A stretch of 53,611 bases of DNA from a virus (lineage: Duplodnaviria; Caudoviricetes), in IMG/VR virus record IMGVR_UViG_3300021964_000093, positions 1 to 53,611 of that record. The stretch is one strand, 5' to 3'. The notes below the pieces were generated by a model. It was not told the DNA's origin and did not search any database. It saw only the letters and a list, made by a program, of their open reading frames with translations. Positions 6,495 to 41,743 of this stretch are shown here, in pieces. The translations under genes and the position numbers were made by a program. The number at the start of each line of letters is the position of its first letter. The stretch's first letter is position 1.

Positions 6495-7346
6495 TTACCT
6501 CTCTTCTGCTTCGTATGTTAACGGATCTAGTCTGTAGGTATTACCTTGATTATCAAGTATTAAAAAGTCTGCAGTTTGTGGGTCATAGAATATATCTCCA
6601 GGTTGTCCTGTAGGTTCTGCTCTAACAATATTTCCACCTGTGCCATATCCATAATTTACAAATCCTTTAAATTTAGATTGTATTTCTGGAGATGCATTTA
6701 CTTGGAATCTAACAAGATTGTTTGCAGTTAAATTAGGTTTTTGTTTTACAGCTAAGTTATCACTTTCTGCAAATGTCTCAGTTAAATCTAATACTCTTGT
6801 TTCTGGTGAAGGAACAACACCTTTCTTAGCAGGATCTGCTTCAGGGTTGTCTATTTTAAATTGTAATTCAGCTATTTCGTTTTCACCTTCTTGTATTTTA
6901 ACAGCTATTCTATTTTGTCTATCTGCATCACCTTCTGCAGCTTTAAAATCTCTTTCTAATCTAGAAAGTTCTGCTTCTGCATCAATTTTTTGTTGTTGTA
7001 AGTCCGCACCGATATCTGCTTCAACACCTGCAAGTTCTATTTCTCTATCTACATCTTTTCTAGCTTGTGCTGCTTTAAAATATTCTGATGTTGGTTCTTC
7101 AAATGCCATAGCTAAATTAGCTAATGTTCCACCACCACCTGTTTGTGATAAACCACGTAAACCACCTTGAATTAATAATTGTGATACTGGATCAAATGCA
7201 GGTTCTTCAAATTTTTCTAAGGCTGCTTTTATTCTTTCAGAAGGTCTAGGTGTTCCTTCTTCAAAATTACTTCTAATACCAGTCATAATACCACCACCTA
7301 CTTCACCACCTTTTCTGAACATAGGTCTTCTAAATACTTTACTCAT
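6495..7346 (-). CDS. putative internal virion protein
   Basis: In ejection module; N-terminal RPMFRKGG motif; helical acidic core. Confidence 0.55.
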   Translation of the reverse strand: MSKVFRRPMFRKGGEVGGGIMTGIRSNFEEGTPRPSERIKAALEKFEEPAFDPVSQLLIQGGLRGLSQTGGGGTLANLAMAFEEPTSEYFKAAQARKDVDREIELAGVEADIGADLQQQKIDAEAELSRLERDFKAAEGDADRQNRIAVKIQEGENEIAELQFKIDNPEADPAKKGVVPSPETRVLDLTETFAESDNLAVKQKPNLTANNLVRFQVNASPEIQSKFKGFVNYGYGTGGNIVRAEPTGQPGDIFYDPQTADFLILDNQGNTYRLDPLTYEAEER

Positions 7347-8161
7347 TAGCCTCCTAATTTACTAAACCCTTTATATAATCCTGCAAGTGTTGCACCTGTA
7401 CTTAGCGCAGTTTGCAATGGACTAGGTGTAGGTTGTACTGTTTGTTGAGTTTGAGCTGGATATCCAGATATTAAACCCATAATTCCTGAACCTAAAGTCT
7501 GTGCAGCTTGAATAGGTTGTTGTACCTGTGCTTGTGCTAATTGTTGTTGAGCAGAAAGTTCTGCTTGTTTTTGTGCTTGTCCTAAACCACCTAATGTAGT
7601 TAATCCAGAAATTTGTTGACCAACTAAACTAGGAGCTAATTGTGCTAAATTCATTTGTTGACCAAAAGCTTGGCCTGCTAATTGTTGTGCTTGACCAAAT
7701 CCTTGTTGTAATAACTGTGCTTGTAATGCAGCTCTGTTTCTATCAGACTGTGATGCATATTCGGCTCTTGCAACACCTTCTCTTCCACCACCAAATGCGC
7801 CAGCTTGAATAGCAGCAGCTGGAATTCCTAATGCACCTCTTTGCGCTTGAACATCAAATTCTTGTAAAGTTGTATCTATTACATCTTGTTGGTATGGAGA
7901 CATAAACTGCTGATATGCAGTTGGTCCTGTTAATGAACCAGCAGCTTGAAGATAAGGAGCGTATGCACCTAATCCACCTGATAACCCCATTGCTTGTTGT
8001 TGCAATGGATCCATGCCAGCCACAAATTGTGGCCCCATTGTTTTAGATAAGTCAGCACCTTTAAAACCTCCGACAGCTTGTTGTAGTTCTGTAATATATG
8101 GTTTTGCAGCTGCTTCAATAAAAGGAGCTGGTTGTGTTACTTGTGTAATAGTTTCAGCCAT
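7346..8161 (-). CDS. putative ejection/pilot protein
   Basis: Q/A/G-rich, FMSPYQQDVID and AGAFGGGR motifs typical of podovirus DNA-transfer proteins. Confidence 0.6.
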   Translation of the reverse strand: MAETITQVTQPAPFIEAAAKPYITELQQAVGGFKGADLSKTMGPQFVAGMDPLQQQAMGLSGGLGAYAPYLQAAGSLTGPTAYQQFMSPYQQDVIDTTLQEFDVQAQRGALGIPAAAIQAGAFGGGREGVARAEYASQSDRNRAALQAQLLQQGFGQAQQLAGQAFGQQMNLAQLAPSLVGQQISGLTTLGGLGQAQKQAELSAQQQLAQAQVQQPIQAAQTLGSGIMGLISGYPAQTQQTVQPTPSPLQTALSTGATLAGLYKGFSKLGG

Positions 8162-9729
8162 TAAACTCTTCCTCCGTTTTCTAATTTTTTCATCATGTCA
8201 TACATACGTTGTGCACCCTTGTTGACATCACCGTTACCCATTCCTCTTACAGCATCTGCTGTAAATACAAATTCATTATTTGATAACATTGCAGGAATGT
8301 CATCTGCCTTTTCTTTTACACCAACTGGAGGAATAAATCCACCACTATCTCTAAGATCTAATTCTGTTATTCCTGCAGGGTTTTGATTCAATGGTAAACC
8401 ACCAATCCCTGATGCCTGCATCGCGTTATCTTCTGCTCTATCCCCATAAGCATAACCTATTCTACCCCCATTAGCCTTACCTTGTGTTTGTTGTATTTGA
8501 TTTACTTGTGCTTCACTTAAACCTGTTATAGATGATATGGTACTAACGTCTGAACCCATTCCTATCATTTGTTTTACTTGTTTAACTTTTTTAGGATCTA
8601 TCATTCCCATTTCAGAAGTACCTTCTTCATATCCAATTCTACCACCATCAGCCATAAACATATTATATCTTTCAACACCTAAATCATCAATTGCTTCTTG
8701 CTCAGATTTATATCGTTTACCATCAATAACAAATCCATATGTTGCATATTGATCAAAACCAGTTGGATCTCCAAATTGTCCACCTTCCATTGGTACAAAA
8801 TTATCTATTTGTTTAGGAGTTGAAAATGAAGGGCTATATTGATTCATATATGATTTTGTTAAAGCATCTATGACTTGTTGTTTTCCAAATTTAGATGTTC
8901 CTGACATTGGACTTTGCATAGAAGACATACCTGGAATAATACCTGAACCTAATTTACCTCTTAAAAATGATTCTATACCACCTCCTCTTGCAGCTTGACT
9001 TAAATCTCTTGCAGCTTGAGCTCTTACGTTTGATTCTACAACAGGTCTGATCGCTTGACCTATTCCTTCTACTTGCATCGCTTCCCTTGTTCTGTCTTGT
9101 AAAAATTGATTAAAATCAAAATTACCACCTTGTTGAAAACCTATTCTACCACCATCAGCAAATCCTCTAGTACTATATTCTGATAAATCAGCTTCTACTA
9201 ATGCTGGTATTTGTTCTTCTGAATATCCTAATTCTCTGTATGCTTTTGTAAGTCTTATTTTTATAGATTCTATATCTTGTTGACTTCTACCTTGACTAGT
9301 CATTTCAGCAACATCTTGTCCAGGCATTCCAGATAGTGCTCCACCTAATAAGGAACCTCCTGCAAATACTCCTAATGTTTTTCCTAAACCACCAGATAAA
9401 CCACCTGTTAATGCTTGACCAACACCAGTATTCATAAGTCCACTTAATACTCCACCACCATATAAACCTGTTCCAGCTTCAACCGTTCCTAATAAACCTG
9501 CTTTCATTGCAGCAGGTGAAAATCTTCCAAAACCAGTTGCTCCACCTAGACCACCTAAATAATAACCTCCTGCAGCAAGAAGCGCTAATTTACCTGCATC
9601 AGATTTAGCCACACTTTTAACAGCGTCAGCTGCTCCGGATACAGCACTCTTTACACCTTTAACAGCTTTCTTTACAAAACTGCCTAAGCCATACATTTGT
9701 CTTGGTTGTTGCATACGTGATATAGTCAT
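8161..9729 (-). CDS. putative internal virion protein with repeated A[D/N]GGRIG[F/Y] motifs
   Basis: Gly-rich hydrophobic N-terminus, three GGRIG repeats, C-terminal DDIPAMLSNNEFVFTADAVRGMG domain resembling tape-measure C-termini. Confidence 0.6.
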   Translation of the reverse strand: MTISRMQQPRQMYGLGSFVKKAVKGVKSAVSGAADAVKSVAKSDAGKLALLAAGGYYLGGLGGATGFGRFSPAAMKAGLLGTVEAGTGLYGGGVLSGLMNTGVGQALTGGLSGGLGKTLGVFAGGSLLGGALSGMPGQDVAEMTSQGRSQQDIESIKIRLTKAYRELGYSEEQIPALVEADLSEYSTRGFADGGRIGFQQGGNFDFNQFLQDRTREAMQVEGIGQAIRPVVESNVRAQAARDLSQAARGGGIESFLRGKLGSGIIPGMSSMQSPMSGTSKFGKQQVIDALTKSYMNQYSPSFSTPKQIDNFVPMEGGQFGDPTGFDQYATYGFVIDGKRYKSEQEAIDDLGVERYNMFMADGGRIGYEEGTSEMGMIDPKKVKQVKQMIGMGSDVSTISSITGLSEAQVNQIQQTQGKANGGRIGYAYGDRAEDNAMQASGIGGLPLNQNPAGITELDLRDSGGFIPPVGVKEKADDIPAMLSNNEFVFTADAVRGMGNGDVNKGAQRMYDMMKKLENGGRV

Positions 9730-9762
9730 ATATAGAAAAACCTATAATAGTTGTTGATTTTA

Positions 9763-10617
9763 TTATTTTTTAGTCTTTTCGTCAACACGTTTAGTATACT
9801 GTAATTCGTCCCAAAGTCTACCAGAATATTGATATTCTCCAACGTGTGTAATGTAGTCTAATACATATGCGTGGACTTTACCACCCATATCTGTCCATCT
9901 TTTACAGAATCCAAAGTCCTCACCATAAAACTCTTTGGTTTTAGGATCATGTAAACAATCAAATAAGTTATAAAAATTAGGTTTAAATACTTCTTTGCCA
10001 TTAACAATAGTTGGTTGATTGATCTTTAATTCTGGATAATGTTTAATCATCTTTTCTATAACCGATCTTTTAATTAACATACATCCTGTTGGAGCATGAG
10101 ACAATTCCATAACACCATCTTTAACAGTTATTTCATTTTTATTATTTACTTTAATAGGAAATGTAAAACCAGATTTTTGTAAATGATCTGCTTGATCTAT
10201 TTTTTCTGCATGAAGTCTTCTCCAAGATTTATCCCAATCTAATGTTTTCATAGGATATGGACATGCAATAATATCTTTATCTAAATCCATCATTTTAAAT
10301 ATAGTCTTAGATTGAAAATCAATATCTGAATCTATAAATAATAAGTAGTCATAGTTTTCAGAATCAGTTAAAAATTCTGATACACATAAATTTCTACCTT
10401 GTTGTACTAATGATGATTTTAATAAACTAAAACTTATTAATATATTTTTTTGCATACAATCTCTTTGAAAAGATAAAGCAGCTTGACAGTAATGCATACT
10501 AACATCACTATGACATGGTGTTGCTACAAATATTTTTTTAACATTTTTACTAATTGTATTTAAATTTATTTCTGTAGTTGGTTCTTTATCAAACCATATT
10601 GGTTTATTGTTTTGCAT
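9763..10617 (-). CDS. GT-A fold glycosyltransferase-like protein
   Basis: IFVATP, GRN, LLFIDSDI (DxD), TGCMLIKR, GEDFGFC. Confidence 0.8.
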   Translation of the reverse strand: MQNNKPIWFDKEPTTEINLNTISKNVKKIFVATPCHSDVSMHYCQAALSFQRDCMQKNILISFSLLKSSLVQQGRNLCVSEFLTDSENYDYLLFIDSDIDFQSKTIFKMMDLDKDIIACPYPMKTLDWDKSWRRLHAEKIDQADHLQKSGFTFPIKVNNKNEITVKDGVMELSHAPTGCMLIKRSVIEKMIKHYPELKINQPTIVNGKEVFKPNFYNLFDCLHDPKTKEFYGEDFGFCKRWTDMGGKVHAYVLDYITHVGEYQYSGRLWDELQYTKRVDEKTKK

Positions 10618-11539
10618 TCAATGCTCCCTGTAAAAATCTTGTCCAAGATACTGCTTTTATTTTCCAATCATAAAAACGATTAACATAATCTATCTGCATT
10701 TGTAAATGATCCTTGATGCCTGGTGCCTGAAGCGATTGTGCGGCTACATCAATACCTGCTGCAAACTTAATTGCTAAACTTTCATAGTTATCAGAGTATG
10801 GAATATACATTGGAAACTCACCGCCAGTTTCAAATAGCGCACCATAATTAGTTACCACACAATATAAACCAGCAGCCATTGCTTCAACTAATGATATACA
10901 AAATGTTTCTTCCCAAATACTAGGATAAACAAATAAATCATATTTATGTAAATTTTGTTTTATATATTCATTGGGTTTATAACCAATATAATTTACATTA
11001 GGTAATTGTTTTGCTTGCTCATAAAGTTCTTGGTAATGTTTATCATTAGCATCATAGAAAGCTTTACCATAAACTTCAGTTGATGAATAAACATCTAGTT
11101 CAATATCTTTATTAGATACTTTTTGCATCGCACCAAGTAAAACATTAAGTCCTCTCCAAGGTGTACAGTGATGTATTATTTTTATTTTCTTTTTTGTTTT
11201 AGTAGGTCTTGGTTTTATTTTATCTATACCATTTTTTATGACTACACATTTTTCTGTAGGGATATCAAATGCCATTCTAAATTTTTCATAATTCCAATTT
11301 GAATTAAACACATACCAGTCATATTTTTTATGATTTGATTTGTCTTGAAACCATGGTGCAAGATTCGGTTGATCGTATGAATTCTTTTGCCAAAGAATAT
11401 TTAATTTGCTAGGATCTAAAGCAATTTTTTCTGGCACCGATGTACAAATAGATACTTGATCTAATAATTTTTTATCTACGTGTTTTCTTAAATATTCAAA
11501 TTGAAGCTCTGTCCCGCCTCTAGGATTTTGGTTTGTCAT
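10604..11539 (-). CDS. GT-B fold (GT4-like) glycosyltransferase
   Basis: N-terminal GGTE, PWRGL, YPSIWEETFCISLVEAMAAG (ExF-x5-EA motif). Confidence 0.88.
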   Translation of the reverse strand: MTNQNPRGGTELQFEYLRKHVDKKLLDQVSICTSVPEKIALDPSKLNILWQKNSYDQPNLAPWFQDKSNHKKYDWYVFNSNWNYEKFRMAFDIPTEKCVVIKNGIDKIKPRPTKTKKKIKIIHHCTPWRGLNVLLGAMQKVSNKDIELDVYSSTEVYGKAFYDANDKHYQELYEQAKQLPNVNYIGYKPNEYIKQNLHKYDLFVYPSIWEETFCISLVEAMAAGLYCVVTNYGALFETGGEFPMYIPYSDNYESLAIKFAAGIDVAAQSLQAPGIKDHLQMQIDYVNRFYDWKIKAVSWTRFLQGALNAKQ

Positions 11540-11750
11540 TTTTCTGATTCATCACTTTCTGTAAAACATTAAGACCTTTAGGAGAAACTTCTACAATAGT
11601 ATCTTGTTGAATATGATCTGCAGTTGTTTCAGTATTAGGATCATTAATGTCTGCATCTCTTTCTACTTCGTCTTTATATACTTTACCTGTTAATTTATTT
11701 TTAAGCACAACGTGAGTTGTACAATGTATTTTTGGTAGTTCGTTATCCAT
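11520..11750 (-). CDS. hypothetical protein
   Basis: 76-aa ORF overlapping both neighbours. Confidence 0.6.
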   Translation of the reverse strand: MDNELPKIHCTTHVVLKNKLTGKVYKDEVERDADINDPNTETTADHIQQDTIVEVSPKGLNVLQKVMNQKNDKPKS

Positions 11751-12239: not shown

Positions 12240-13174
12240 TATAGAATCCTGTTTTCCACTTGTCTTAATACTTCTTTATCAAAACCAGATAAATCTACAC
12301 CTGCATTATTTAAGAAATTCTTAGCAATACCATCACCATTGTAATCTGCAAATTCAATATCATTAATAAAAATTCTTCGACCAGATGTATCTAATGAATA
12401 CACAACTGGAATCTTGTCAACCTTAATTGCAATTGGACTATCTTTAACCATAATAAATTTACCATCTTCTTTAACATAGTGACTACCTGCAACGGTAACA
12501 CCTTTATAATCATGTATTTCATCAGATGCTTTAAATTGAAATACCCCTGTAACTTCTCCACCTTTAGTATCATCACCAAGTTGAATATCTTTAATTTTCT
12601 TTTCACTACCATCAGCCATTTGAATAAGAGTGCTTGGATCGAAACAATATCCTGGCGCACCTGTATCACTTCCACTACTACCGCCTGGGTTTCCAGCATC
12701 ATCTCTTCCTGGTGCAGAGTCTCTGCCTTGTGCATCAATAGCATCTCTAGTATCTTTATTTAAACCACCTAAAGCATTTGTATAAGGATTTGTAATGTTT
12801 TCAATTAAACCTGTTATACCTCTACCAATTAATGCTCCAGGAATACCTGCCAATACTCCTCCTATAATTCCAGGAGTGCTTATCATTCCAGTTAAATCAG
12901 ATAAAGAATTAATTCCTAAATTTTCACTTCTATCAATATCATTATCTTCATCTCTACCTTCTCCACCACCTTGTTGTTGCTGTAAATATAAAAGTCTTAA
13001 TTGTTCTGGACTTAATCCAGTTGTTGCTAAAGATTCTAATTGTTCATCTTCTTCAAATAATGTAGGTTGGATTTGAGTTTGAGGTAATGAATATATTCCC
13101 GATATATCCGGTAATGGTTGATTTAAATAATCTGCTATAGATTGTGGTAATCCAAATCGTCTATCGTATATCAT
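12239..13174 (-). CDS. protein with C-terminal Hint (Hedgehog/intein) domain
   Basis: CFDPSTLIQMADGSEKKIKDIQLGD (block A), VTVAGSH (block B His), VYSLDT...IFINDIEFADY (blocks F/G). Confidence 0.85.
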   Translation of the reverse strand: MIYDRRFGLPQSIADYLNQPLPDISGIYSLPQTQIQPTLFEEDEQLESLATTGLSPEQLRLLYLQQQQGGGEGRDEDNDIDRSENLGINSLSDLTGMISTPGIIGGVLAGIPGALIGRGITGLIENITNPYTNALGGLNKDTRDAIDAQGRDSAPGRDDAGNPGGSSGSDTGAPGYCFDPSTLIQMADGSEKKIKDIQLGDDTKGGEVTGVFQFKASDEIHDYKGVTVAGSHYVKEDGKFIMVKDSPIAIKVDKIPVVYSLDTSGRRIFINDIEFADYNGDGIAKNFLNNAGVDLSGFDKEVLRQVENRIL

Positions 13175-15141
13175 TATCGTCTACCGTCCGGTTTTATATC
13201 TACTCTTAATGTTCCATAACGCCAAGTTTCACCTACAGCGTCGTTTTCAATTTTGATTGCAAGAAGTCTTCCTCTTGCACGTGTGTCTACTTTATCAGTA
13301 GATGATGTAATTGTAAAGGGGCCAAGAGGTGAGCTAGCTGCTGTTTGACTTGGATAATCATTTAATAGTAATGTTACTTTTGAATTACCAGTTAATACTT
13401 TAAAATCAGGTACAAATCTTTTCATAGACATAATAAATTCACCATCTCCTTTAAGATCAGCTAAACCAGTTGTTTGACCGGTAATCCCTCTTCTTGCAGA
13501 GATATCAAAATCACCTGATTGAATATAAGCATTAATAGAAGTTGTACCAGAACTATTGACTTGATCGGTTCCGGTTTCGTGAGCGTAATAAGTCGTTGCT
13601 CCAAATGTATTTGTAACACCTTGTATTGGAAAATTAGGTGTAGCTGTTGTTGAATATTCAGTTGCATAAGGTAAATCAAATACAGCAGCATCTTGGTATG
13701 AAGTTCTAGCTAATGAACCGGTTGTCCAAACATTTTCTCCATAGTTATAAGTAACCGATCTGTTAATTTGTGTTTGACCATTTTGTGCATAGAACCATGT
13801 TACTTCATTATATAAACTATTATGACCTGCATATATAATTTTATTAGTGTTATAATTAATTCCTAAATTATCTCCACTAGTTGTAAATACAAAATCTTCT
13901 ACTAAACATGGTAATGATTTAACAGTACCATCAAACGCAAAGAATCCTCCAGCATCACCCATCCAATATACAACACCGTTTGCATAAACAACTGCATGTT
14001 GTCCCATTGCTCCACAGTTTACTCCTACTTGTCTAATACTAAATGTAAATGGAGGTCCAACAAACTGAACCGTATAAGCTGCCGTGTCTGTTAAAATTAA
14101 TACATAATCTTTACCTTGAATAGCTGCTCTAATTTCGTTTCCTTGGTCTAATCTAAATGTACCTGCAGTGTTCGTTGCTGTTGGTTGATAAGTATCTAAA
14201 TCTTCTTGATTAGAGAATCGTATAAACATTGGGTCTTGTGTTGTTGTATCTCCAATTGTTGTTTCAGTTCCAAGATGAAATAAATGTCTATCTCGATCAG
14301 ATACAATAGTCATAATAGATGCAGTTGGATTATTAGTTGTTACATAATTTGTAGTGGTTGTTGATGCTCTAATTGTTCTTGGATTCGTTGCTCCTGAGTC
14401 CCAAGTAAATGTTCGACCATTGTGAATAGTTGCAACTAATACTTCTCCAAAATTATCAAGACTCCAGTTGCCTGGATCCAGAACCGTGGTCGTTGTAGCT
14501 CTAGCTGTATTCCATGTTGAATCACCCCATAAACCTGCACCCCAACCAAAACCTTCTAATTGAAATACTGGACCTACAGATACATATGGATTAATTTCTG
14601 CTGATCCTTGTGTAGACATACCCGTACCACCCTCATTTGCTGGCATGGTAATATCAAATGTATTAGAGGTTACGTTTAATACTTCAAATGTATTATTTTC
14701 AAATTGTATAGTTGTAAAATTAGTTTCACCACCTCCTGGTAAAGATACTGATGTAAAGGTTATATATCTTCCAGCAATCAAACCATGAGAAGTTTTATTA
14801 ACGGTTACTGTAGCTGAACCGGTTGTTGAATCAAAAGTAGCACCAGTAATTGCTGTATCTAAAGGTGTGATGTCATAAAAAGTATCTGAATAATATAAAA
14901 ATAAACCTTGTGAAGTTCCAATTGCTACATACTTTTCACCCGCTAAAGATGTAAAAGAATGTTGAGCTCTTGCAACACCAGGTAAAGTTTGATTGACTAA
15001 TGTAAGTTGTGACCAACCACCTATTTTTTCAGGGAGTCCATATCTGAATCTAACGTTGTCACCATCAACCCATTGTGATTCACCACCTGAGTCTGTGACC
15101 ATTTTATTGAAACCTGGTTTAAAATTCAGTTTTTGTAACAT
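13174..15141 (-). CDS. tail nozzle/stabilisation protein (P22 gp10 or T7 tubular B-like)
   Basis: 655 aa beta-rich; NVRFRYGLPEKIGGW, IRFSNQED, C-terminal PDGRR; position after fibre genes. Confidence 0.7.
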   Translation of the reverse strand: MLQKLNFKPGFNKMVTDSGGESQWVDGDNVRFRYGLPEKIGGWSQLTLVNQTLPGVARAQHSFTSLAGEKYVAIGTSQGLFLYYSDTFYDITPLDTAITGATFDSTTGSATVTVNKTSHGLIAGRYITFTSVSLPGGGETNFTTIQFENNTFEVLNVTSNTFDITMPANEGGTGMSTQGSAEINPYVSVGPVFQLEGFGWGAGLWGDSTWNTARATTTTVLDPGNWSLDNFGEVLVATIHNGRTFTWDSGATNPRTIRASTTTTNYVTTNNPTASIMTIVSDRDRHLFHLGTETTIGDTTTQDPMFIRFSNQEDLDTYQPTATNTAGTFRLDQGNEIRAAIQGKDYVLILTDTAAYTVQFVGPPFTFSIRQVGVNCGAMGQHAVVYANGVVYWMGDAGGFFAFDGTVKSLPCLVEDFVFTTSGDNLGINYNTNKIIYAGHNSLYNEVTWFYAQNGQTQINRSVTYNYGENVWTTGSLARTSYQDAAVFDLPYATEYSTTATPNFPIQGVTNTFGATTYYAHETGTDQVNSSGTTSINAYIQSGDFDISARRGITGQTTGLADLKGDGEFIMSMKRFVPDFKVLTGNSKVTLLLNDYPSQTAASSPLGPFTITSSTDKVDTRARGRLLAIKIENDAVGETWRYGTLRVDIKPDGRR

Positions 15142-15155
15142 ATAACCTCATTGTA

Positions 15156-32975: not shown

Positions 32976-32994
32976 AGTATTCTCCTTCTATGTT

Positions 32995-33477: not shown

Positions 33478-33670
33478 TTTGCTCCTTTGGTTTTAGCAGG
33501 TTAGAGATTTCCTGTGATATTCTTAAATAGGCATGTGCCTGTCCCATCATATACTTGTATTTTTCCATATTGTCAACACCTCCACCAATCATATTGTCTC
33601 CAATATTTTGATAGGATTCTTTTAAATATTTTTGTATTTTATTAAGTATTACTAATTCTTCATTTAACAT
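33416..33670 (-). CDS. hypothetical protein
   Basis: 84-aa helical ORF upstream of groES. Confidence 0.6.
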   Translation of the reverse strand: MLNEELVILNKIQKYLKESYQNIGDNMIGGGVDNMEKYKYMMGQAHAYLRISQEISNLLKPKEQNDTEREQDLTNVVRFGDTKD

Positions 33671-33830
33671 CAGCTATTTTACCTTTATTATTACCTTTCT
33701 TGATTACATATTTTTGTGTACCATTCGCACCGGTCTCTACCTCTTTGCGAAGATTTTTAAATAAGTCTTTTTCCTTATTTTCTTTTTCTTTTCTTTGAAG
33801 AAAAGAATCTATTGTTTTTGAGTCTCTCAT
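33660..33830 (-). CDS. hypothetical protein
   Basis: Likely start MRDSK; overlaps the next gene. Confidence 0.5.
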   Translation of the reverse strand: MRDSKTIDSFLQRKEKENKEKDLFKNLRKEVETGANGTQKYVIKKGNNKGKIADVK

Positions 33831-33902
33831 AAATACTAGGTATAAAGGTATCAAAAAAATTGTCAATAGCACCAAATATTGTGTACATGAATCTATCGAA
33901 CA

Positions 33903-34208
33903 TTAGCAATTCCACTTTCTAAGTGACTTATTGATTCTTGAATCCGGATCCCTGGCAGTTTTAGCTGAAGTCAATCTTTTCTTCATACCCTTCATTCTAG
34001 CACAAAATGACTTACGTCTTTTTGCTGCTTTACTTCCTTTTTTTAATTTTGATGGTTTAGTGGTTACTGCTGTTTTTAATTTTGATCCAGGATTAGCTGC
34101 TCTATAAGATGCAACGCCTTTACGGTTCAGGCCTCCTGATTCAGATTTGCCTTCTTTTCTTTGCCATGCTGGCGATTTACTTCCTGATGCAAATTGTCTT
34201 CTGAACAT
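33903..34208 (-). CDS. small basic protein
   Basis: K/R-rich; RRKSFCARM...SLRKWNC. Confidence 0.7.
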   Translation of the reverse strand: MFRRQFASGSKSPAWQRKEGKSESGGLNRKGVASYRAANPGSKLKTAVTTKPSKLKKGSKAAKRRKSFCARMKGMKKRLTSAKTARDPDSRINKSLRKWNC

Positions 34209-34426
34209 TACGCTTGTGATTTTTTAATTGCAGCTTCTGTAGGTGCACCTTTAGCACCTTTTTTTCTCATCTTTTCACCACGTTTTCTTTTCATAGCTAT
34301 ATTATACCATAAACCTTTTTTAGCTTTTTTACCTTCTTTAGTTGTATGATATTTAGAAGTTGATCCGCCTTTAGACATACATGCTCTATCATTAGCTACT
34401 TGTGTATTATATCTTCTATTTGCCAT
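34208..34426 (-). CDS. small basic protein
   Basis: K-rich; GLWYNI..KRKRG..MRKKG.KGAPT. Confidence 0.7.
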   Translation of the reverse strand: MANRRYNTQVANDRACMSKGGSTSKYHTTKEGKKAKKGLWYNIAMKRKRGEKMRKKGAKGAPTEAAIKKSQA

Positions 34427-34572
34427 TATTTTTTCCCCTTCATTGCCATTGCCATCATAGATGGTTTTGGTTTTTCTTTTTTCTTTTTTTTATTTTGAAT
34501 AAGCGCTTGAAGTTTTGGTGGTAAAGTTTTTTGTGCTTTTGTTAATCCACCTAAATTAAATTTTTTTCTCAT
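34426..34572 (-). CDS. small basic protein (48 aa, not in ORF track)
   Basis: MRKKFNLGGLTKAQKTLPPKLQALIQNKKKKKEKPKPSMMAMAMKGKK*; TAATG coupling. Confidence 0.65.
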   Translation of the reverse strand: MRKKFNLGGLTKAQKTLPPKLQALIQNKKKKKEKPKPSMMAMAMKGKK

Positions 34573-34574
34573 AA

Positions 34575-34952
34575 TTATTTCCTCTTAATTAAATCAGTTG
34601 CTTTTAATCCATATACAGATGCTATGACACCTACAAAAATTGTCTGATACCAAAAAGGCAGTTGTGAAAAGTATTCAAAAAACAATTGCATCTTTTCCAT
34701 AGCTGCCGGATCATCCGAAAATACTGCCCACGATAATAACGCAATTGGAGCCGAAAGTAAAATCAAAATAAACTCGTCCTTCCAGTCCGATTGTCTTGCT
34801 TCTAATAATTTACCTTGATATTCAGCTTCACCATTCGCCATTTTTTCTGCATGACGCATTTGTGCATCCGCCATTAACATTTTTGTCTTCTGACGATTCT
34901 TAAAAATATGAGAGCCTGCTTGTACGGCTAATTTAATAGCACCAAACCACAT
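34575..34952 (-). CDS. membrane protein, holin-like
   Basis: SDWKDEF followed by two TM helices, ending SVYGLK. Confidence 0.55.
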   Translation of the reverse strand: MWFGAIKLAVQAGSHIFKNRQKTKMLMADAQMRHAEKMANGEAEYQGKLLEARQSDWKDEFILILLSAPIALLSWAVFSDDPAAMEKMQLFFEYFSQLPFWYQTIFVGVIASVYGLKATDLIKRK

Positions 34953-34953
34953 G

Positions 34954-35136
34954 TTAGTAAGCTTTAGAACTTCTTTTCTTTTCTGCTAGTACTTTTCCTT
35001 GACCTTTAACTTCCATTTCAGGTCCACCAGTACCAATTAAGTTAAAAGCTTTGTCAGCAGTAGTTTTTGATCTTGGATCAATCATAGTTTCTTGCTCACC
35101 AACTTTAACTTCTGTTATTTTATCCAGTTTTTCCAT
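34954..35136 (-). CDS. hypothetical protein
   Basis: Start MEKLDK with SD AAGGAG. Confidence 0.6.
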   Translation of the reverse strand: MEKLDKITEVKVGEQETMIDPRSKTTADKAFNLIGTGGPEMEVKGQGKVLAEKKRSSKAY

Positions 35137-35137
35137 T

Positions 35138-35302
35138 TTATCTCCTTGGTTTTGATTTTCCAGCCTCCGATAAAGCAATTGCAATCGCTTGTTTACGACT
35201 TTTTACTTTTTTCTTTGACTTCCCTATCGGTAATTCACCTTTTTTGAATTCCCGCATAACCTTTTTAACCTTTTTTTCAGATTTTGTCATTTTATTTCTC
35301 AT
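35138..35302 (-). CDS. small basic protein (54 aa, not in ORF track)
   Basis: MRNKMTKSEKKVKKVMREFKKGELPIGKSKKKVKSRKQAIAIALSEAGKSKPRR*. Confidence 0.7.
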   Translation of the reverse strand: MRNKMTKSEKKVKKVMREFKKGELPIGKSKKKVKSRKQAIAIALSEAGKSKPRR

Positions 35303-37837
35303 TTATTCGTTACCACCTCTGAAAATTTTTACTTTTGGCATCATATTCTGTTGGTTCTTCATCATTGAGTCAACATTTGGGATAGTTTTTGATAAAATTG
35401 TTTTTTCAATTGATGTATCAGCTCTTAATTTAGCTAATTCTTCGTTCTGCTCTAGTTTTTCATCTTGATTTTGTTGATTCATCATTGCTTTCATCTTATC
35501 AAGGTCCATTCTATCCTTACCTTCACGTTCTTTTCTATCATTTTCCATTGCTCTAAGATCTAATTCTCTTGATCTTAGTTTTGCGATTGGATCATTATCA
35601 AATTGTGAAGTAATTTTCTTCTCTTCATTCATAAACTCTTCCATCATCTCAGCAATCAACTGTGCTTTTCTCGCTTCAATCTTTTGTTGAATCTGCATTG
35701 CTTGCATTTGTATCTGTTGAGCCATCTGTGGATTCTGTTGCATCATCATTTGCATCTGTTGAAGTTGTTGCATTTCATCTCTGTACTCTAATTCAACTTG
35801 TTCTTGAGCCATTAGACTAATATGTTCAAAAATATTTTTCTCTAAACTTGCCATAACCATTGGATTATTTCTAGCAATGTTTGTTGCCATAAAATTTAAG
35901 TGAGCAGTAATATGTGATCTGTGATCTTGACCAGGAAACGCTTGAAAAGGTTTACCACCTAAAGCATCAATATGTTCTAATGCAGGATCTTTTGGTTGTG
36001 GTGGCATTGGTTTTACTAAAACACTATCAATATTTTTAACCCCTAATGCTTCATACATATTTCTATATGCTTGATACATATTATGCATTTGTGGATTTGA
36101 GGTTGCCAGTTGGAGTTCTGTTTGCGCAAGTGAGATACGCTGTGTCTGTGAAAAAATGTTGGGGTCAGCAACTGGCAATATATCTACCCTATCATCAAAA
36201 TCTGATTGCATAATCATTCTTTGACCCCCAACTACATCATATGGATATTGTTGTGGTAGATATAACTTGAATACTCTTGCCATAAGTCTGAATTCATTCT
36301 TTAAGGCAGAGTAAATTCTTTTGTGAATAGCGGACATAGTTCTGCTTCCTCTTTCAAGTAAAGCAACTGTAGTTCCAACTGCAGCTTGTTGATTACCATC
36401 ACCAACTTGCATATCAGCAATGGATGCAAATCTTTGACCTGCTTGAACAACCACACCCATCAATGCGAGTAAGGTTTGACTTGGTTCTTTAAACGGAAGC
36501 ATCATGAATGAATCTCTTAGATTTCCACCTGGTGCATCTACATCTCTAAATTCTCCAGGTTGAATTGATTGTGCATCATCTCTAATTCTAATTCCTCTCA
36601 TTTTAAAACCAGCTGGCAGATTAGATAACGTTCCCGCATCTAAGAGCTGTCTTAAAGCTGCGGTCGCTGTTCTAGACAGTCCACCAATCATGTGGATTAG
36701 ACCGAAACCATAAAACCCTAAACCCGGTAAAAATTTAAAGTGTACAAAATATTGTACCTTATCTTTTTTAGGATTACCTACTTCGTAGTTTCTTTTAATA
36801 GATAAAATATCTCTTGATGATTCTTCTATTGTTACAATGTATGGAAGTTTAATTCCTGACGGCTCACCAGTCTCGGGATTGACATCTTCAAAACCTTCAA
36901 TGTCTAAATTCACGTGACATTCTAAAATTGTATATACATCTTCATTTTGAGTTTTAGAAATTCCTTCAAGTTCTCTTTCTTTTTTCTCAACATCAGATTC
37001 TCTATCACCTGGTTTACCTAAATCAATATCTCTATAGAAACCTGCAATCTGTTGTTTTCTTAATTCGTTTTCTGAAATTTTAACACGATGAATAACCGCT
37101 TCCGCATCGTCTAATGAGGTAGCTGTATACGGAACGATTAAATCATCTGCTGGAACGAACTTGGATACTGCTCGTCCTTCTACTTCATCATAGTAAACTT
37201 TTTTAAAAGTTGAACCTGATAGAGGTAAATGAAATAACATAGAATCAAATTCTGGTTCATACTCTTTCATCTGATCCATAATTTGATAATTCATAAAATC
37301 TTTTACACGAGTTGCTTGTTGAACTTTTTCTGGAGTTTGTAATCCAATGATTTGAGTTCGAACCGGTCCATCTGCTGGTAATAATTCTTTATATGCTAAA
37401 GCTTGAAACTGTGTAACTGCTTCTGCTAATACTGGGTGTGTTGCACCGGATGCACCAGAAAATGGTTCTGTTCGTTGATCATATTTAAATCCTAATAAAT
37501 CTAAACCTTGTGTGTAAGTTTTTTCCCAATCTTTTCTTGATGAAATATATTCTTGATATTTAGAATTTAAATCAGATGCTAATCTTCCTAAAACTTCATC
37601 TGGTAAAAAGTCTGCTAAATTTGCATAATGCTCATCACCACCTTCAGGTGTAGCTGCAGCTGGATCTAAATTAATATCAACAGATCCATCTTCGTTCTCT
37701 GTAACTTCTATGTCATCAGGTGACTCTTGTTCTTTTTCTACTTCTTCAACTACCTGTTCTTGAATTTCTTCTTCACCAGGTATCTCAAATTCTTTTCGAG
37801 GCTCGTTTGGAAGTGCCTTGTCTATGTTGTCTGCCAT
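35303..37837 (-). CDS. portal protein
   Basis: 844 aa, P22-like size with Q-rich C-terminal barrel; HPVLAEAVTQFQA, LPLSGSTFKKVY, GFYGFGLIH; downstream of TerL. Confidence 0.85.
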   Translation of the reverse strand: MADNIDKALPNEPRKEFEIPGEEEIQEQVVEEVEKEQESPDDIEVTENEDGSVDINLDPAAATPEGGDEHYANLADFLPDEVLGRLASDLNSKYQEYISSRKDWEKTYTQGLDLLGFKYDQRTEPFSGASGATHPVLAEAVTQFQALAYKELLPADGPVRTQIIGLQTPEKVQQATRVKDFMNYQIMDQMKEYEPEFDSMLFHLPLSGSTFKKVYYDEVEGRAVSKFVPADDLIVPYTATSLDDAEAVIHRVKISENELRKQQIAGFYRDIDLGKPGDRESDVEKKERELEGISKTQNEDVYTILECHVNLDIEGFEDVNPETGEPSGIKLPYIVTIEESSRDILSIKRNYEVGNPKKDKVQYFVHFKFLPGLGFYGFGLIHMIGGLSRTATAALRQLLDAGTLSNLPAGFKMRGIRIRDDAQSIQPGEFRDVDAPGGNLRDSFMMLPFKEPSQTLLALMGVVVQAGQRFASIADMQVGDGNQQAAVGTTVALLERGSRTMSAIHKRIYSALKNEFRLMARVFKLYLPQQYPYDVVGGQRMIMQSDFDDRVDILPVADPNIFSQTQRISLAQTELQLATSNPQMHNMYQAYRNMYEALGVKNIDSVLVKPMPPQPKDPALEHIDALGGKPFQAFPGQDHRSHITAHLNFMATNIARNNPMVMASLEKNIFEHISLMAQEQVELEYRDEMQQLQQMQMMMQQNPQMAQQIQMQAMQIQQKIEARKAQLIAEMMEEFMNEEKKITSQFDNDPIAKLRSRELDLRAMENDRKEREGKDRMDLDKMKAMMNQQNQDEKLEQNEELAKLRADTSIEKTILSKTIPNVDSMMKNQQNMMPKVKIFRGGNE

Positions 37838-37949
37838 TTATTTTTTCTCCAGATTGTTTGATCGTTGTAACAGTATTATACGAAATATTCAAGCCCTGAG
37901 GCATGGGTCCTGATTTAGGTGGAATAGTTCTGGTTAAACGTTTAATCAT
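37785..37949 (-). CDS. small hypothetical protein (54 aa, not in ORF track)
   Basis: MIKRLTRTIPPKSGPMPQGLNISYN...; fills the gap and overlaps the portal start. Confidence 0.45.
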   Translation of the reverse strand: MIKRLTRTIPPKSGPMPQGLNISYNTVTTIKQSGEKINGRQHRQGTSKRASKRI

Positions 37950-40569
37950 CTATTAATTTCTTTACGTCTTCAATACTATCAATAATTTCAAATTCTGCAT
38001 CAATATCTACATCTCCTTCTGGATTTATTCTTGCTATTTCTTGAGCTTCATAATCAAATTCACCAGGATATTCCACTTCTCTACCTGTTTTAGGATCTAT
38101 TCTTTTTTGTGGTTTAACATAAACAATTTCTGCTGGTGCACCTTTATCTGTTTTAAATTTTGCAGTAATGGATCCGGCATCTTCTAAAACTTCTGCATCT
38201 TTATATTTATGATACGCTCCAGATAATCTACCACCTGTTACTTTATCTAATTTATCCATAATGCCTTTACTCTTTACTGCATCAACTAAATTAAAAAATA
38301 TTTTCTCAGCTTCTGTTGCTACTTTTTCTACAGCAGGTCCTGCTGCTTCTATGCCTTTAGCAACCGGTTTTAACATTCTTCCAAATACCGGTATTGATGC
38401 AATGCCTGCAGCAGTTTTAAAAAATTTTCTTCTTTTTGGATCAAATCCATCTGCAAAACCAATACGACCACCATTGGCCATACCCATAATTCCTGTTCCA
38501 AAATTAGGGTCAGAAGCTGCTTGTCTTTCTCTTAAAGTTTTTTCCAATCTTGGTTGTAATATTTGTGTATCAAATTCTTCTGCTTTTTGTAATGCAAGTT
38601 GTTCACGTTCTGTTAAAGCAGGTGCTCCATATTGCGCACCAGCTTGTTTCATTTGTGCAGAAAATAAATCTTCTTTTAATCCAAATTGATCTACATAATT
38701 CGCTCGATCTCTTGCGTCACTAATTGGTACGCCCATCCCTAATGTTGCAACATTTAATAAAGTTTCTTTACCAGATCTTCCTTCACCTAAATCTAAAGGA
38801 GCAAATGCTGCACCTAAAGCAAGTTCAGGTATGACTGCAAATTTACTAACCTGTCTTGCACCTCTAGCAATTTGTGGTGCGTACTTTCCAAATAATTTTT
38901 TAGCTGTTTGAAAATCCTTAGATAAAATATCTTTAGCCATTTCAACATCACCCATTGCACCAAGAGTCATGGCTCTTTCTCTAACTTCAGGTTTTATTTT
39001 AACTTTTGTTTTATCTAATAAATCTACTAATGCAGTTCTTGTTCCTACTTCTTTTTTACCAATTTTAGTTGCAATGTCTGGACCTAAAGAACCGTAAAAT
39101 TTATTGATGGCTTTTTTCTTTTTATTGTAATTATATAAAGTTCCTTCTTGATAAGAAGGAGATTTCTGTTCTTTTTTTAATATATTTTTAAATGTAGATT
39201 CAAGTGATAATTTACCTCTAGCTTCTGCTAAGTTTTGATCTCCAAATGTTAATTGCACATTAAAAGGATTTTGTTGAAATCCTTCTATGTGTTGAATATG
39301 AAAAGGATTATCTCTTGCACCTGGTTTTAATCCAAACTGTTTATTAATTTCAGGCATTAAATTTTCTTGATAAAGAAATGATTTCTGTGCATAAGGTTTT
39401 AAAACTTGATCTGATGGAGTATTGGTAGCTTTTTCAATGTCTTCTAATAAAGTGTCATATTTAAATTGATTACCTTGTTTATCGGTTAATACTATTTTCT
39501 GAGTTTCATTTTTATCCAAATACCTTTTAATAGGAAGTTTTTTATCATAACTAAAAGGTTTATCTAAAGCTTGTTCATTTCTTTTTAATAAATCTTCCCA
39601 TAATAATGATTTAGGATCTCGAGGGTTTCTATAATATTTATTTAAATTTTTTCTTCGTTCTCTACTTTTTTCTAAAACATATTCTTCATATTTTTTTTGA
39701 GCTTCTTCTCCTCTCAAACCTCTTGAAGTTTCATATCTATATTTTCTATTAGCTAAAATTTTAGCTTCTCTTTTAGCATCGTCTGCTTGTAAGTTTAGTA
39801 GTTTTCTACGATCAGATATTTTTTTATTTATTTCTTTATCAGATAATTTTAAAACGTTTTCATATTTATCTGGAAATCTTTCTTTAATATATTGTTTATA
39901 TTCTTTTCTATCTGCTTCTGTAATTGATTTAGCCGCAGTTGATCCAGCGTATACAAAATCTTCAGGAATTAATCCTTTTTTCTTCGCAATGTTATATCTT
40001 CTGTCAATTGAAATAGGTGAAAATTTTTCAGCTTGTTTTGGATCAGGTTTGTATCCTTCTTTATTTAAAAAATCTGCAAACTCTTTATTAGTTTTATCTT
40101 TATTTTCTATTCTTAATTTTACAAACTTATCTTCGTCTAAATAATTTTCAACTTTAGCTAAATCTTTTCTAGTATTGATTCCAGGATTTTTATAACCTTC
40201 TCTGTTATTTTCTAAATCTTCACCTTCAATTACTCCACCTCCAATTGCTTTATTTATTCTAGGTAAAGTCTCACCATGATTTTCTCTTGCAAAATCTAAT
40301 AGCTCCTGTTTCCTGCTTCTAAAATAATCGAGTCCGGCTTCGGGTTCAACAACACCTTTTTCAGCAGCTTTATCTAATACTGCTTGTAATTTTAAAAGCA
40401 TTTCATCTTGAGGGAATCCACCAATAAAACCTTTTAAGTAAAGATCTGCTTCTTCTCTAAACATATCTTCTGTGTAAGGTTTTTCTTGTGGTATGATCTG
40501 TTCTTGAATCGGTTTTCTAGGAGGTCTGACAAGATCAGCTTTTGCTAATTTAAATTTTCCAATCTCCAT
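37942..40569 (-). CDS. large putative internal head protein
   Basis: 875 aa between TerL and portal; contains MANGGRIGFADG; basic central domain. Confidence 0.55.
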   Translation of the reverse strand: MEIGKFKLAKADLVRPPRKPIQEQIIPQEKPYTEDMFREEADLYLKGFIGGFPQDEMLLKLQAVLDKAAEKGVVEPEAGLDYFRSRKQELLDFARENHGETLPRINKAIGGGVIEGEDLENNREGYKNPGINTRKDLAKVENYLDEDKFVKLRIENKDKTNKEFADFLNKEGYKPDPKQAEKFSPISIDRRYNIAKKKGLIPEDFVYAGSTAAKSITEADRKEYKQYIKERFPDKYENVLKLSDKEINKKISDRRKLLNLQADDAKREAKILANRKYRYETSRGLRGEEAQKKYEEYVLEKSRERRKNLNKYYRNPRDPKSLLWEDLLKRNEQALDKPFSYDKKLPIKRYLDKNETQKIVLTDKQGNQFKYDTLLEDIEKATNTPSDQVLKPYAQKSFLYQENLMPEINKQFGLKPGARDNPFHIQHIEGFQQNPFNVQLTFGDQNLAEARGKLSLESTFKNILKKEQKSPSYQEGTLYNYNKKKKAINKFYGSLGPDIATKIGKKEVGTRTALVDLLDKTKVKIKPEVRERAMTLGAMGDVEMAKDILSKDFQTAKKLFGKYAPQIARGARQVSKFAVIPELALGAAFAPLDLGEGRSGKETLLNVATLGMGVPISDARDRANYVDQFGLKEDLFSAQMKQAGAQYGAPALTEREQLALQKAEEFDTQILQPRLEKTLRERQAASDPNFGTGIMGMANGGRIGFADGFDPKRRKFFKTAAGIASIPVFGRMLKPVAKGIEAAGPAVEKVATEAEKIFFNLVDAVKSKGIMDKLDKVTGGRLSGAYHKYKDAEVLEDAGSITAKFKTDKGAPAEIVYVKPQKRIDPKTGREVEYPGEFDYEAQEIARINPEGDVDIDAEFEIIDSIEDVKKLIDD

Positions 40570-40570
40570 T

Positions 40571-41743
40571 TTACAGCCCCATTAAATACTGTAAGCCACC
40601 TTTTGAGTTCTTTTTTCTTGTGCCTAAAAAATATTCTATGGGTTGAGCTTCATCTGCTGCTTTTTTCATAGCCTCTTCCATTTTTTTATATCCTTCAGGA
40701 TCTGTTTCTTTTGCAAACCTATCCATTTCACCTGCGATCTCTGGATCAGAAATATCTATACTTCCAGTTTTTTTCATCGACTCCATACTTTTTACAGGTT
40801 TGTTTTTAAGTTTTTGTAAAAGAGGTATTTTAAGTTCGTCGTATGCCATACCGTATGCGTTTAATATATCTTTTTGATCAAACATATTTCTATCTACACC
40901 AAGTTCTTCTAACATAGAATCGACTGCAACGTCAGCATCATATTTAATATCATCAGTTGTAAAAATATTATCAACTGCTTTTTTAATTTCGTCTTTTAAA
41001 TTTTTACCTTTTTGAGATAGAAACTTAGCTAGTTTAACTCCAGAACCAAAAGCATACATTGCTCTGTTAATACCACCTTCTGAATTTGGTTTTCTATCTT
41101 TTGGATCAAATCCTAATAAAATATCTTCTTGTTCGATTGCTTTTTTAATCTCTTCCATCTCTTCATCAGTATATCCTTTAGGCATATCTGTTCTACCACG
41201 TTCAAGATTAAACATACCTTCTTGTTCTAAAATCTCGTCCATACTTTTTGTTGCTTTACCCATTCGTTCAATTTCAATCATTTCTTCTGCAACGTTTTGA
41301 ACATCCCCTAATACATCTGCACCAAATTCTTTTATAAATATTTCTGTTGGATCTACTTTATCTGGTACTTGAATTCCTGCTCTATCTAAAATTTTTCTAG
41401 CTGCAGTTCTAGTTAATCCTGTTGCAAGATCCATGCCAGGTTGTTTCATTTCTTTTAAACTCTCAATACCTTTTTCTAATCTTTGCATGACTGGACTGGT
41501 CCCTGATTCCTGAACCGGTGTTTCTTTTTTCGGTGCGTTTTTAATAGAAGTAATACCGCCGCCACCAGGAGGTGGGGCTTTAGTTGTAGGTCCTTTAAAT
41601 ACTTGTTCGATTTGTCGTTTTAATAAATCATTAACTTCACCAAATTCACGTTTTGCAAAGTCATAAGCTTCATCAATTGTCTTAATTACATTCTGTGATC
41701 TTAAACTTCGAAGCGATGCTAAAAATCTTAATATTGGATTCAT
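40571..41743 (-). CDS. putative internal head protein
   Basis: Likely start MNPIL just after the TerL stop; RKPNSEGG and RKKNSKGG motifs. Confidence 0.55.
   Translation of the reverse strand: MNPILRFLASLRSLRSQNVIKTIDEAYDFAKREFGEVNDLLKRQIEQVFKGPTTKAPPPGGGGITSIKNAPKKETPVQESGTSPVMQRLEKGIESLKEMKQPGMDLATGLTRTAARKILDRAGIQVPDKVDPTEIFIKEFGADVLGDVQNVAEEMIEIERMGKATKSMDEILEQEGMFNLERGRTDMPKGYTDEEMEEIKKAIEQEDILLGFDPKDRKPNSEGGINRAMYAFGSGVKLAKFLSQKGKNLKDEIKKAVDNIFTTDDIKYDADVAVDSMLEELGVDRNMFDQKDILNAYGMAYDELKIPLLQKLKNKPVKSMESMKKTGSIDISDPEIAGEMDRFAKETDPEGYKKMEEAMKKAADEAQPIEYFLGTRKKNSKGGLQYLMGL

Follow-up and report, generated by a model that had tools for sequence, protein, structure and literature searches.

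In bacteriophage T4 the internal proteins IPI–III and Alt are diverse, fast-evolving products of a variable locus whose sole common feature is a short conserved peptide, the capsid-targeting sequence, which directs them into the prohead, as described in PMC3012670. Encapsulin cargo proteins carry a short cargo-loading peptide at either end, which is sufficient for loading and binds a site on each subunit of the HK97-like shell, in the account given in PMC7355545. For polyvalent and MuF-associated proteins, which are encoded near the portal gene and consist of strings of small modules or effector domains, Iyer et al. 2017 (PMC5512222) have argued that they are loaded into the particle and injected. 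Here we describe a short motif with the core R-x-x-[F/Y]-x-x-G-[G/S/T] in the IMG/VR virus record IMGVR_UViG_3300021964_000093, a phage genome segment of 53,611 nucleotides (nt) that was analysed whole and is called the window below. The motif is non-random, conserved at the level of the peptide, modular, predicted to lie in disordered segments, specific to one phage clade in the sequences searched, and paralleled by a second tag in a related lineage.

The window has a GC content of 29–42%, carries nearly all of its genes on the minus strand, and belongs to an HTVC023P-type pelagiphage whose nearest relative is the cultured phage HTVC027P, grown on Pelagibacter HTCC1062 (portal 76.8% identical). 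Remoter portal matches occur in 023Pt_psg01, HTVC023P, DSL-LC04, the Roseobacter phages CRP-901/902, Caulobacter phages and a Planktothrix phage. Phages of the HTVC023P type are reported to be among the most abundant viruses of ocean viromes (10.1101/2019.12.14.876532).

A first-pass annotation of the window had proposed R-x-x-[F/Y/M/N/K]-x-x-G-[G/S] as a signal shared by seven otherwise unrelated proteins, whose designation as late is suggested by gene position. All 14 peptides on which it relied are present in the genes to which they had been assigned, all on the minus strand. With this pattern, the proteins of 66 open reading frames (ORFs; 16,506 residues) gave 11 matches against 1.86 ± 1.37 after shuffling within proteins, and none of 1000 shuffles reached 11; a 78-ORF set gave 12 matches against 1.82, with none of 300 shuffles reaching 12. 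The form GGR[IV]G[FY] occurs four times in the window against 0.004 times in shuffles. The excess of the motif over shuffled controls is therefore real, and the matches fall mainly, as had been claimed, in the seven proteins named. Two or three further matches lie outside them (in 13174–15141 and in the tail-fibre-like 19471–21312 and 21663–23507), which is about the number expected by chance. The first of these is a single RHLFHLGT, conserved in 24 of 62 members of its family and situated inside an apparently folded protein, and it is treated as coincidental.

Because the pattern had been fitted to the window, the fair test is another genome. The excess is reproduced independently in HTVC027P, with 12 matches against 0.9–1.9 in shuffled proteins (1.87 for the first-pass pattern; none of 300 shuffles reached the observed number), and 023Pt_psg01 has five matches against 2.09 (15 of 300 shuffles reach this). 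The HTVC027P orthologues of the tagged proteins are gp41, gp42, gp44, gp48, gp50, gp82 and gp84. Five remoter relatives are at background: HTVC023P (2 matches against 1.87 shuffled), DSL-LC04 (3 against 2.11), Caulobacter phage RW (4 against 2.12), Planktothrix phage Pag-Yong1 (2 against 3.19) and CRP-902 (none against 1.95). When R..[FYM]..G is counted within the first 30 residues only, it is found in 5 of 78 window ORFs and 5 of 84 HTVC027P ORFs, against zero or one ORF in each other genome.

The consensus was refined with 160 IMG/VR loci gathered around homologues of the portal and of the protein at 7346–8161, family motif counts being taken over non-redundant ORFs. Drawn from 292 distinct instances, the logo reads R-x-x-[FY]-x-x-G-[G/S/T], frequently with GG just upstream: R at position 0, Y (50%) or F (49%) at +3, G at +6, and T (29%), G (26%) or S (26%) at +7, a small residue following the Gly in 81% of copies. 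The R, F/Y and G core of the original consensus thus holds, whereas its last position, restricted to G or S, does not, and the N, K and M variants at +3 (RINKAIGG, RKPNSEGG, RKKNSKGG and RACMSKGG) are weaker, being kept only in close relatives or forming a flanking element. When the seven proteins were compared with one another by BLAST, the sole segments in common were centred on the motif or of low complexity (best E = 0.001, database of seven sequences), which bears out their description as otherwise unrelated, and the motif is conserved in six to seven families that have no other similarity.

Codons within the tag vary synonymously (Pro: CCT 26, CCA 19, CCC 5, CCG 2; Gly: GGT 30, GGA 11, GGC 10, GGG 1), which shows selection on the peptide and not on the DNA. 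A DNA-level explanation, such as a regulatory element or a recombination cassette, was rejected on this ground and because the start regions of the tagged genes differ. The consensus of a twin-arginine translocation (Tat) signal peptide is an RR-x-F motif followed by a hydrophobic stretch; this candidate was also rejected, as MFRRQFASGSKSPAWQRKEGKS and MSKVFRRPMFRKGGEVGGG run into polar or Gly-rich sequence with no hydrophobic stretch. An N-degron reading was rejected on sequence.

The 283-residue protein at 6495–7346 (minus strand), part of an ejection- or internal-core-like cluster, carries a tandem N-terminal tag, RPMFRKGG (residues 7–14, nt 7305–7328) followed by RSNFEEGT (residues 25–32, nt 7251–7274). 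The motif is present in 67 of the 68 orthologues, always within the first 30 residues. In an alignment of 60 sequences, with identity to the window protein down to 21%, the only invariant columns are M1, R7, P8, M9, F10, R11, G13, G19 and R25, and the N-terminus MSKVFRRPMFRKGG...GIM.GI.DR.N[YF]..G is nearly constant. The tagged proteins diverge fast between orthologues, and no part of them is conserved better than the motif.

In the same cluster, the Gly-rich, ejection-like protein of 522 residues (8161–9729, minus strand) contains RQMYGLGS (nt 9679–9702), RIGFQQGG (9124–9147), RIGYEEGT (8617–8640) and RIGYAYGD (8440–8463), together with a Gly-rich hydrophobic segment and a conserved C-terminal domain that is weakly like tape-measure proteins. 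Members of its family, 66 of 70 with the motif, start either as M.ISR.Q.PRQ[ML]YGLGS or as ...RQLRMGGGIM and have between zero and three internal copies of the form [A/N]xGGR[IV]G[FY]AxG[T/S] at variable positions; hybrids such as MADGGRAQYGLGS combine the two forms. A start of the type M-[A/T]-I-S-R-x-Q is common to this protein (9709–9729) and the capsid protein (30870–30890), both on the minus strand; it is conserved in each family with different codons, and may be due to chance or represent a second shared N-terminal signal.

Two of the carriers are encoded on the minus strand between the terminase and portal genes. The 875-residue protein (37942–40569) has MANGGRIGFADG (core nt 38443–38466) and a degenerate RINKAIGG (nt 40237–40260) that aligns with RENFQDG in a homologue; its family holds 34 motif copies in 19 of 35 members, usually located close to residue 15, around residue 100 and at internal sites. 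The 405-residue ORF (40571–41788), whose translation probably begins at Met16 (about nt 41743), has RKPNSEGG-IN-RAMYAFGS (nt 41042–41095) and, at its C-terminus, RKKNSKGGLQYLMGL (from nt 40595), which contains RKKNSKGG. The strict motif is found in 8 of 12 homologues. All 13 aligned members of this family end in GL-x-YL-[MLS]-G-[LMF] (window 40571–40618), most of them with R-x-K-[N/Q]-[A/S]-x-GG just upstream, and this peptide may be a C-terminal form of the tag. A Pfam scan of seven large motif-bearing terminase–portal proteins from IMG/VR found no domain above threshold.

The remaining carriers are small basic proteins encoded on the minus strand after the portal gene, which begin M(F)R[KR]x[FY]xxG[GST]. 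A 101-residue DUF6321 protein (33903–34208) has the N-terminal tag RRQFASGS (nt 34179–34202), and since its Pfam match (E = 5.8e-19) covers residues 20–99, the tag lies outside the domain. Eleven of 30 orthologues are tagged, some with two copies, and the untagged ones begin straight at the domain. The 48-residue protein (34426–34572) has RKKFNLGG at residues 2–9 (nt 34546–34569), and the motif is found within the first 30 residues in all 16 members of its family. The 72-residue protein between them (34208–34426) has the weak variant RACMSKGG (nt 34364–34387); with the strict motif in two of eight family members, this is a doubtful instance. The tag is modular: orthologues differ in how many copies they carry and where, and in whether they carry one at all. 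The three small genes (33903–34572) lie head to tail, meeting at 34208 and 34426 with a stop/start overlap, TAATG, at the first junction, and give the appearance of one multi-module protein divided into pieces that are coupled in translation.

AlphaFold2 models of the 522- and 283-residue proteins were built from family alignments. In the first, all four copies fall in coil segments (residues 1–31, 191–203, 356–373 and 420–429) with a predicted local distance difference test (pLDDT) below 50, between helices of pLDDT 88–97; in the second, both copies lie in residues 1–31, mostly coil and likewise below 50. The proposed placement at termini or in linkers is thus borne out for every copy in the two models. 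Short linear binding motifs are usually recognised by high conservation within segments predicted to be disordered, and the models suggest that the tag is one of them.

We tentatively propose that the motif is a tag, specific to this lineage, that docks or loads internal and ejected proteins, a reading argued by analogy; we rate it the best explanation, given its likeness to the T4 capsid-targeting sequence and to encapsulin cargo-loading peptides. The tag would be a short linear docking motif, with the core given above and usually preceded by GG or GGMM, that sits in disordered regions, at either terminus or in inter-domain linkers, of proteins travelling inside the virion. Its carriers would be the internal-core or ejection-like proteins at 6495–7346 and 8161–9729, the large variable terminase–portal proteins, and some of the small basic post-portal modules. 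During procapsid assembly the exposed peptide would bind a pocket on a conserved head component (the inner face of the capsid, the scaffold, the portal or an internal core) and so recruit the attached protein, several copies per protein adding avidity. Conserved positions at i, i+3 and i+6 suggest one-sided docking of an extended peptide. The mode could resemble that of the T4 capsid-targeting sequence or of the encapsulin peptide, and nothing observed calls for cleavage of the tag. We infer that the carriers are located inside the virion and that the peptide binds a head component.

Candidate receptors are encoded in the head core, all on the minus strand: a scaffold-like protein of 322 residues with an acidic tail and a coiled coil (32007–32975), a 154-residue protein (31538–32002), a 190-residue protein (30902–31474) and the major capsid protein (29979–30890), which has Pfam Phage_capsid_4 and Mu-like gpT matches. 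Co-folding of residues 1–40 of the 283-residue protein with the capsid, scaffold-like and 154-residue proteins, supplied as alignments and run without controls, gave a score of 0.18, the mark being 0.32, a value that speaks neither for nor against binding. A fold search of the 283-residue model against the PDB gave no match at E ≤ 0.001, a PDB sequence search with the capsid, portal and 522-residue proteins gave none, and the ESM Atlas returned only unnamed viral clusters for the 154-residue protein.

The first-pass reader had noticed no copies in the capsid or portal proteins, and the orthologues agree. The portal (35303–37837, minus strand; Pfam SU10_portal and phrog_1216) is motif-free, with tagged genes on both flanks, and the motif is found in none of its 72 orthologues (59,499 residues), nor in any of the 31 terminase, nine capsid or 18 scaffold-like orthologues; those of the 154- and 190-residue proteins likewise gave no match. 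Within the ejection-like cluster (2400–9729, minus strand), which lies at the end of the gene order and comprises the proteins of 522, 271, 283 and 1363 residues, the Q-rich 271-residue protein (7346–8161, minus strand) has the motif in none of 70 orthologues, and the 1363-residue protein (2400–6491, minus strand) in one of 57. We take this cluster to resemble the internal-core or ejection gene sets of podoviruses; its family matches are weak, namely phrog_4287, a "DNA ejection protein" family (E = 1.4e-4), for 7346–8161, and the tape-measure-like C-terminal match for 8161–9729.

An alternative is a self-association or DNA-binding "sticker," in which the Arg/aromatic/Gly motif joins the internal proteins to each other, to the untagged 7346–8161 or 2400–6491 proteins, or to packaged DNA, so building an internal body or ejection conduit and not addressing proteins to the shell. 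The motif does lie in Gly-rich disordered segments, often in several copies, and the small tagged proteins are very basic; moreover, BLAST homologues of the 1363-residue giant are found only in the motif-bearing genomes HTVC027P and 023Pt_psg01, and the oldest copy of the tag is on the protein encoded directly before it. However, unrelated families have the same fixed spacing and near-invariant residues, which suggests a defined pocket and not compositional stickiness, and the tagged proteins come from three separate gene clusters. This explanation, which overlaps with docking and differs from it mainly in the binding partner, we regard as unlikely.

The distribution of the tag was followed through the form GGRIG[FY]. 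A DNA pattern for A[DN]GGRIG[FY]A matched at least 120 IMG/VR stretches, and every one of the 77 new loci examined there encodes homologues of window proteins. Their motif-bearing ORFs lie between terminase and portal or in the ejection-like cluster, and many of the proteins occupying these slots have only the motif in common with the window proteins. In 596 Gb of prokaryote genomes the same pattern, which is GC-rich, matched 92 stretches, where by our own arithmetic about 26 or more are expected by chance. Among the 80 prokaryote loci listed, two have window homologues together with the complete motif, both of them phage-like contigs (one in a Pelagibacteraceae single-cell assembly, the other a 6-kb low-GC bin contig); the others are high-GC matches, only two of which have any refined-motif match. 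The single-cell contig (28.5 kb) carries homologues of 13174–15141, 2400–6491, 7346–8161 and 8161–9729 along with the full motif, a content consistent with a SAR11 host for the motif clade. Judged from these sequences, the motif is a speciality of this phage clade. A full-text literature search found no mention of the motif or of DUF6321.

A simpler N-terminal form is present on the syntenic protein of DSL-LC04 (MKSKVMERSMFRKGE) and HTVC023P (MDKVLTRKMFRD...). This simpler, older form suggests that the tag spread from the 283-residue family to other proteins: it may have begun as the RxMFR N-terminus of that family and then passed to other cargo in the HTVC027P-like clade. A tblastn search of the phage collection with a 35-residue tag gave no match, and a word-based search for longer proteins sharing residues 1–40 of the 283-residue protein, itself a weak test, found none.

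HTVC023P and HTVC027P infect the same Pelagibacter strain, and only HTVC027P has an excess of the motif, which fits a phage-internal code better than a host-imposed one. This bears on the proposal that the motif acts after ejection, engaging a component of the host envelope or cytoplasm or priming the threading of proteins through the portal–tail channel. Two carriers look like ejection proteins (both are neighbours of the phrog_4287 match, and one has the tape-measure-like C-terminal motif and the Gly-rich hydrophobic segment), and N-terminal placement would suit a leading end. A shared host without a shared motif argues the other way, as do the quite different tag found at the same locus in CRP-902 and the near-absence of the motif from prokaryote genomes, which indicates that it mimics no common cellular motif. 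A post-ejection function is accordingly rated distinctly unlikely.

CRP-902 shares with the window the synteny of portal, GroES, scaffold, 154-residue, 190-residue and capsid genes and has no copy of the motif. In its portal–GroES interval, gp65, gp66, gp68 and gp72 instead begin MANP[VI]KGA[IL]G.LG and are similar only over their first 17–38 residues; the four genes with this N-terminal tag lie at 39154–40695, 40695–41231, 41490–42236 and 43095–44405 of the CRP-902 locus (L163), on the minus strand. An all-against-all scoring of N-terminal segments recovered this tag and the N-termini of tail-fibre proteins, and did not place the 8-residue motif above the null. A PBECR5 nuclease domain is present in gp65, and gp68 gives a match to GNAT that is borderline. 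Iyer et al. 2017 (PMC5512222) make the case for packaging and injection of portal-proximal effector proteins, the class to which gp65 belongs. A broader conjecture is that R-x-x-[F/Y]-x-x-G-[G/S/T] in the HTVC027P-like clade and MANP[VI]KGA... in the CRP-902 lineage form an exchangeable, encapsulin-like address system, each binding a pocket in the HK97-type head and together defining the set of packaged and injected proteins; this is a possibility we consider rather doubtful.

The portal–GroES interval is hypervariable among the window's relatives, with 136 ORFs in 38 families at 20 loci whose portals are at least 72% identical, and nine of these families have a tagged member. Together with the 11 tagged among 30 DUF6321 orthologues, this is incompatible with the "phage-wide" tag of the first-pass annotation. 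Several points also weigh against loading as we propose it. The remaining 29 families of the interval have no tagged member, and 19 of the 30 DUF6321 orthologues lack the tag; since so many putative cargo proteins do without it, their entry into the head, if it happens, cannot depend on the tag alone. The candidate partners (portal, capsid, scaffold, 154-residue protein and GroES) are also present in relatives without the motif, and internal placement in several copies is unlike the strictly N-terminal T4 sequence. Finally, the available text of the literature on HTVC023P-type phages contains no virion proteomics, and the virion residence of the carriers is suggested by gene position and the weak family matches.

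The DUF6321 module of the window is 87–99% identical to modules in at least 7,998 longer multi-module proteins, among 8,000 candidates scored. These longer proteins (178–2000 residues) have a "beads-on-a-string" organization, many of them with DUF192 and other small basic Cys-containing modules, and PHROG profiles place the DUF6321 domain at the C-terminus of families of 450–928 residues. Some of the multi-module proteins are encoded on contigs of 42–211 kb. Among 120 listed fused proteins (62,154 residues) there was no match to the motif, and their junctions are acidic. The motif therefore does not serve generally to link modules in such strings, and occurs where each module has its own gene.

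This absence also bears on maturation cleavage, in which a phage or host protease would cut at G-[G/S/T] and free N-terminal peptides or modules, possibly in combination with targeting as in T4. There are precedents: T4 gp21 removes the capsid-targeting sequence, the host protease Prp trims head proteins of Staphylococcus phage 80-alpha, and the adenovirus and African swine fever virus (ASFV) proteases cut at a Gly-Gly-X consensus, the analogy originally drawn. The occurrence of the motif at module boundaries and termini, and the frequency of small residues after the Gly, would suit such a site. Gly occupies the last position in only the 26% of copies noted above, however, so that this is not a Gly-Gly site, and an invariant Arg and an aromatic residue six and three positions upstream would be an unusual footprint for the proteases named. 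The 120 fused proteins listed, in which a linker cleavage site would be expected, lack the motif. PHROGs scans of 50 of the roughly 68 window ORFs and Pfam scans of 20 revealed no prohead, cysteine or maturation protease (16–18 mostly small ORFs lay outside the scan), apart from a 138-residue HExxH protein (48596–49012) with a weak metalloprotease PHROG match. Its gene belongs not to the structural module but to the replication/packaging region, where it adjoins a small-terminase-like gene, and BLAST gave no match for it in any of the seven relatives compared, which include HTVC027P. The Gly-Gly analogy is weak, and cleavage in general is improbable.

The gene order of the window starts with the large terminase (41745–43223, minus strand), followed by the 405- and 875-residue proteins and the portal. 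After the portal comes a run of small, mostly basic ORFs (33400–35302, minus strand), which includes the tagged ones, and then a GroES-like co-chaperonin with a 55-residue N-terminal extension (32995–33477) and the head core. A second chaperone-type gene, for an Hsp20-like small heat-shock protein, is encoded by the phage at 1665–2063. Downstream of the capsid gene are tail genes, three tail-fibre-like paralogues and four adjacent 2OG-Fe(II) oxygenase-like genes. The paralogues (19471–21312, 21663–23507 and 23514–24473) all match phrog_27227 and have a common N-terminal segment, ..[LI]RG..[VI]K..S.DPANP, which is probably a shared tail anchor; a blastn search of the phage collection with the tail-fibre region gave no match.

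The oxygenase-like genes (15156–17967), assigned to PHROG families annotated as 2OG-Fe(II) oxygenase or "ferrochelatase," and a glycosyltransferase gene (10604–11539) lie within the structural module. As the motif exposes Arg and Tyr/Phe in a disordered context, it might be the recognition site of a modifying enzyme encoded by the phage, for example one of these. The distribution of the enzymes speaks against this: the oxygenase at 15790–16371 has homologues in HTVC023P and DSL-LC04, and the glycosyltransferase one in HTVC023P, both phages without an excess of the motif, whereas 023Pt_psg01 has the motif and no glycosyltransferase match. With no direct link between enzyme and motif, we consider modification very improbable.

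The structural proteins of HTVC023P-type pelagiphages are almost wholly uncharacterised. If the tag does mark internal cargo, the proteins carried into SAR11 cells could be listed from sequence; such a list would be likely to include anti-defence or takeover effectors. A receptor pocket in the head would be indicated as well, and the tag could offer a handle for loading foreign proteins. A podovirus that uses terminal and internal tags and has no recognisable protease would widen known cargo loading in tailed phages beyond T4. An exchangeable address system of the kind conjectured above would make the injected proteome readable from metagenomes and would link phage cargo loading to the origin of encapsulin cargo-loading peptides. 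Should the loading reading hold, the tag would extend a known kind of system; the observation of the motif itself is solid. The interpretation first placed on it is, overall, partly supported.

Compared with the known systems, the motif resembles the Gly-Gly-X sites of adenovirus and ASFV in the small residues at its end and in its position between modules. It departs from them in the minority of copies with a second Gly, in the lack of a related protease among the ORFs scanned, and in a conserved Arg and aromatic residue that have no counterpart there. The polyvalent proteins are closer, in that the DUF6321 module of the window recurs in multi-domain phage proteins encoded beside virion genes, and the tagged gp65 of CRP-902 has a PBECR5 domain. 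In the window clade, however, the modules are separate small genes, some of them individually tagged, and the fused forms are without the motif; Pfam detected no MuF domain in the window ORFs scanned. As with the T4 capsid-targeting sequence, a conserved short peptide is found on otherwise unrelated, putatively internal proteins, and in phages of the window type a hypervariable interval encodes unrelated small basic proteins tagged at the N-terminus, a likeness in anatomy that the N-terminal tag of CRP-902 strengthens. The strict N-terminal place and the prohead-protease site of T4 are lacking, copies being also internal, C-terminal and multiple, with no protease in the 50 ORFs scanned, and the phage that carries the tag is a podovirus-type pelagiphage and not a T4-like myovirus. 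The encapsulin cargo-loading peptide differs from the window tag in its sequence pattern, the phage particle packages DNA as well, and internal motifs in several copies are atypical of encapsulin cargo. Nevertheless, like the encapsulin peptide, the tags of the window are terminal on segments predicted to be flexible, with both N-terminal versions and, in the 405-residue family, a C-terminal one.

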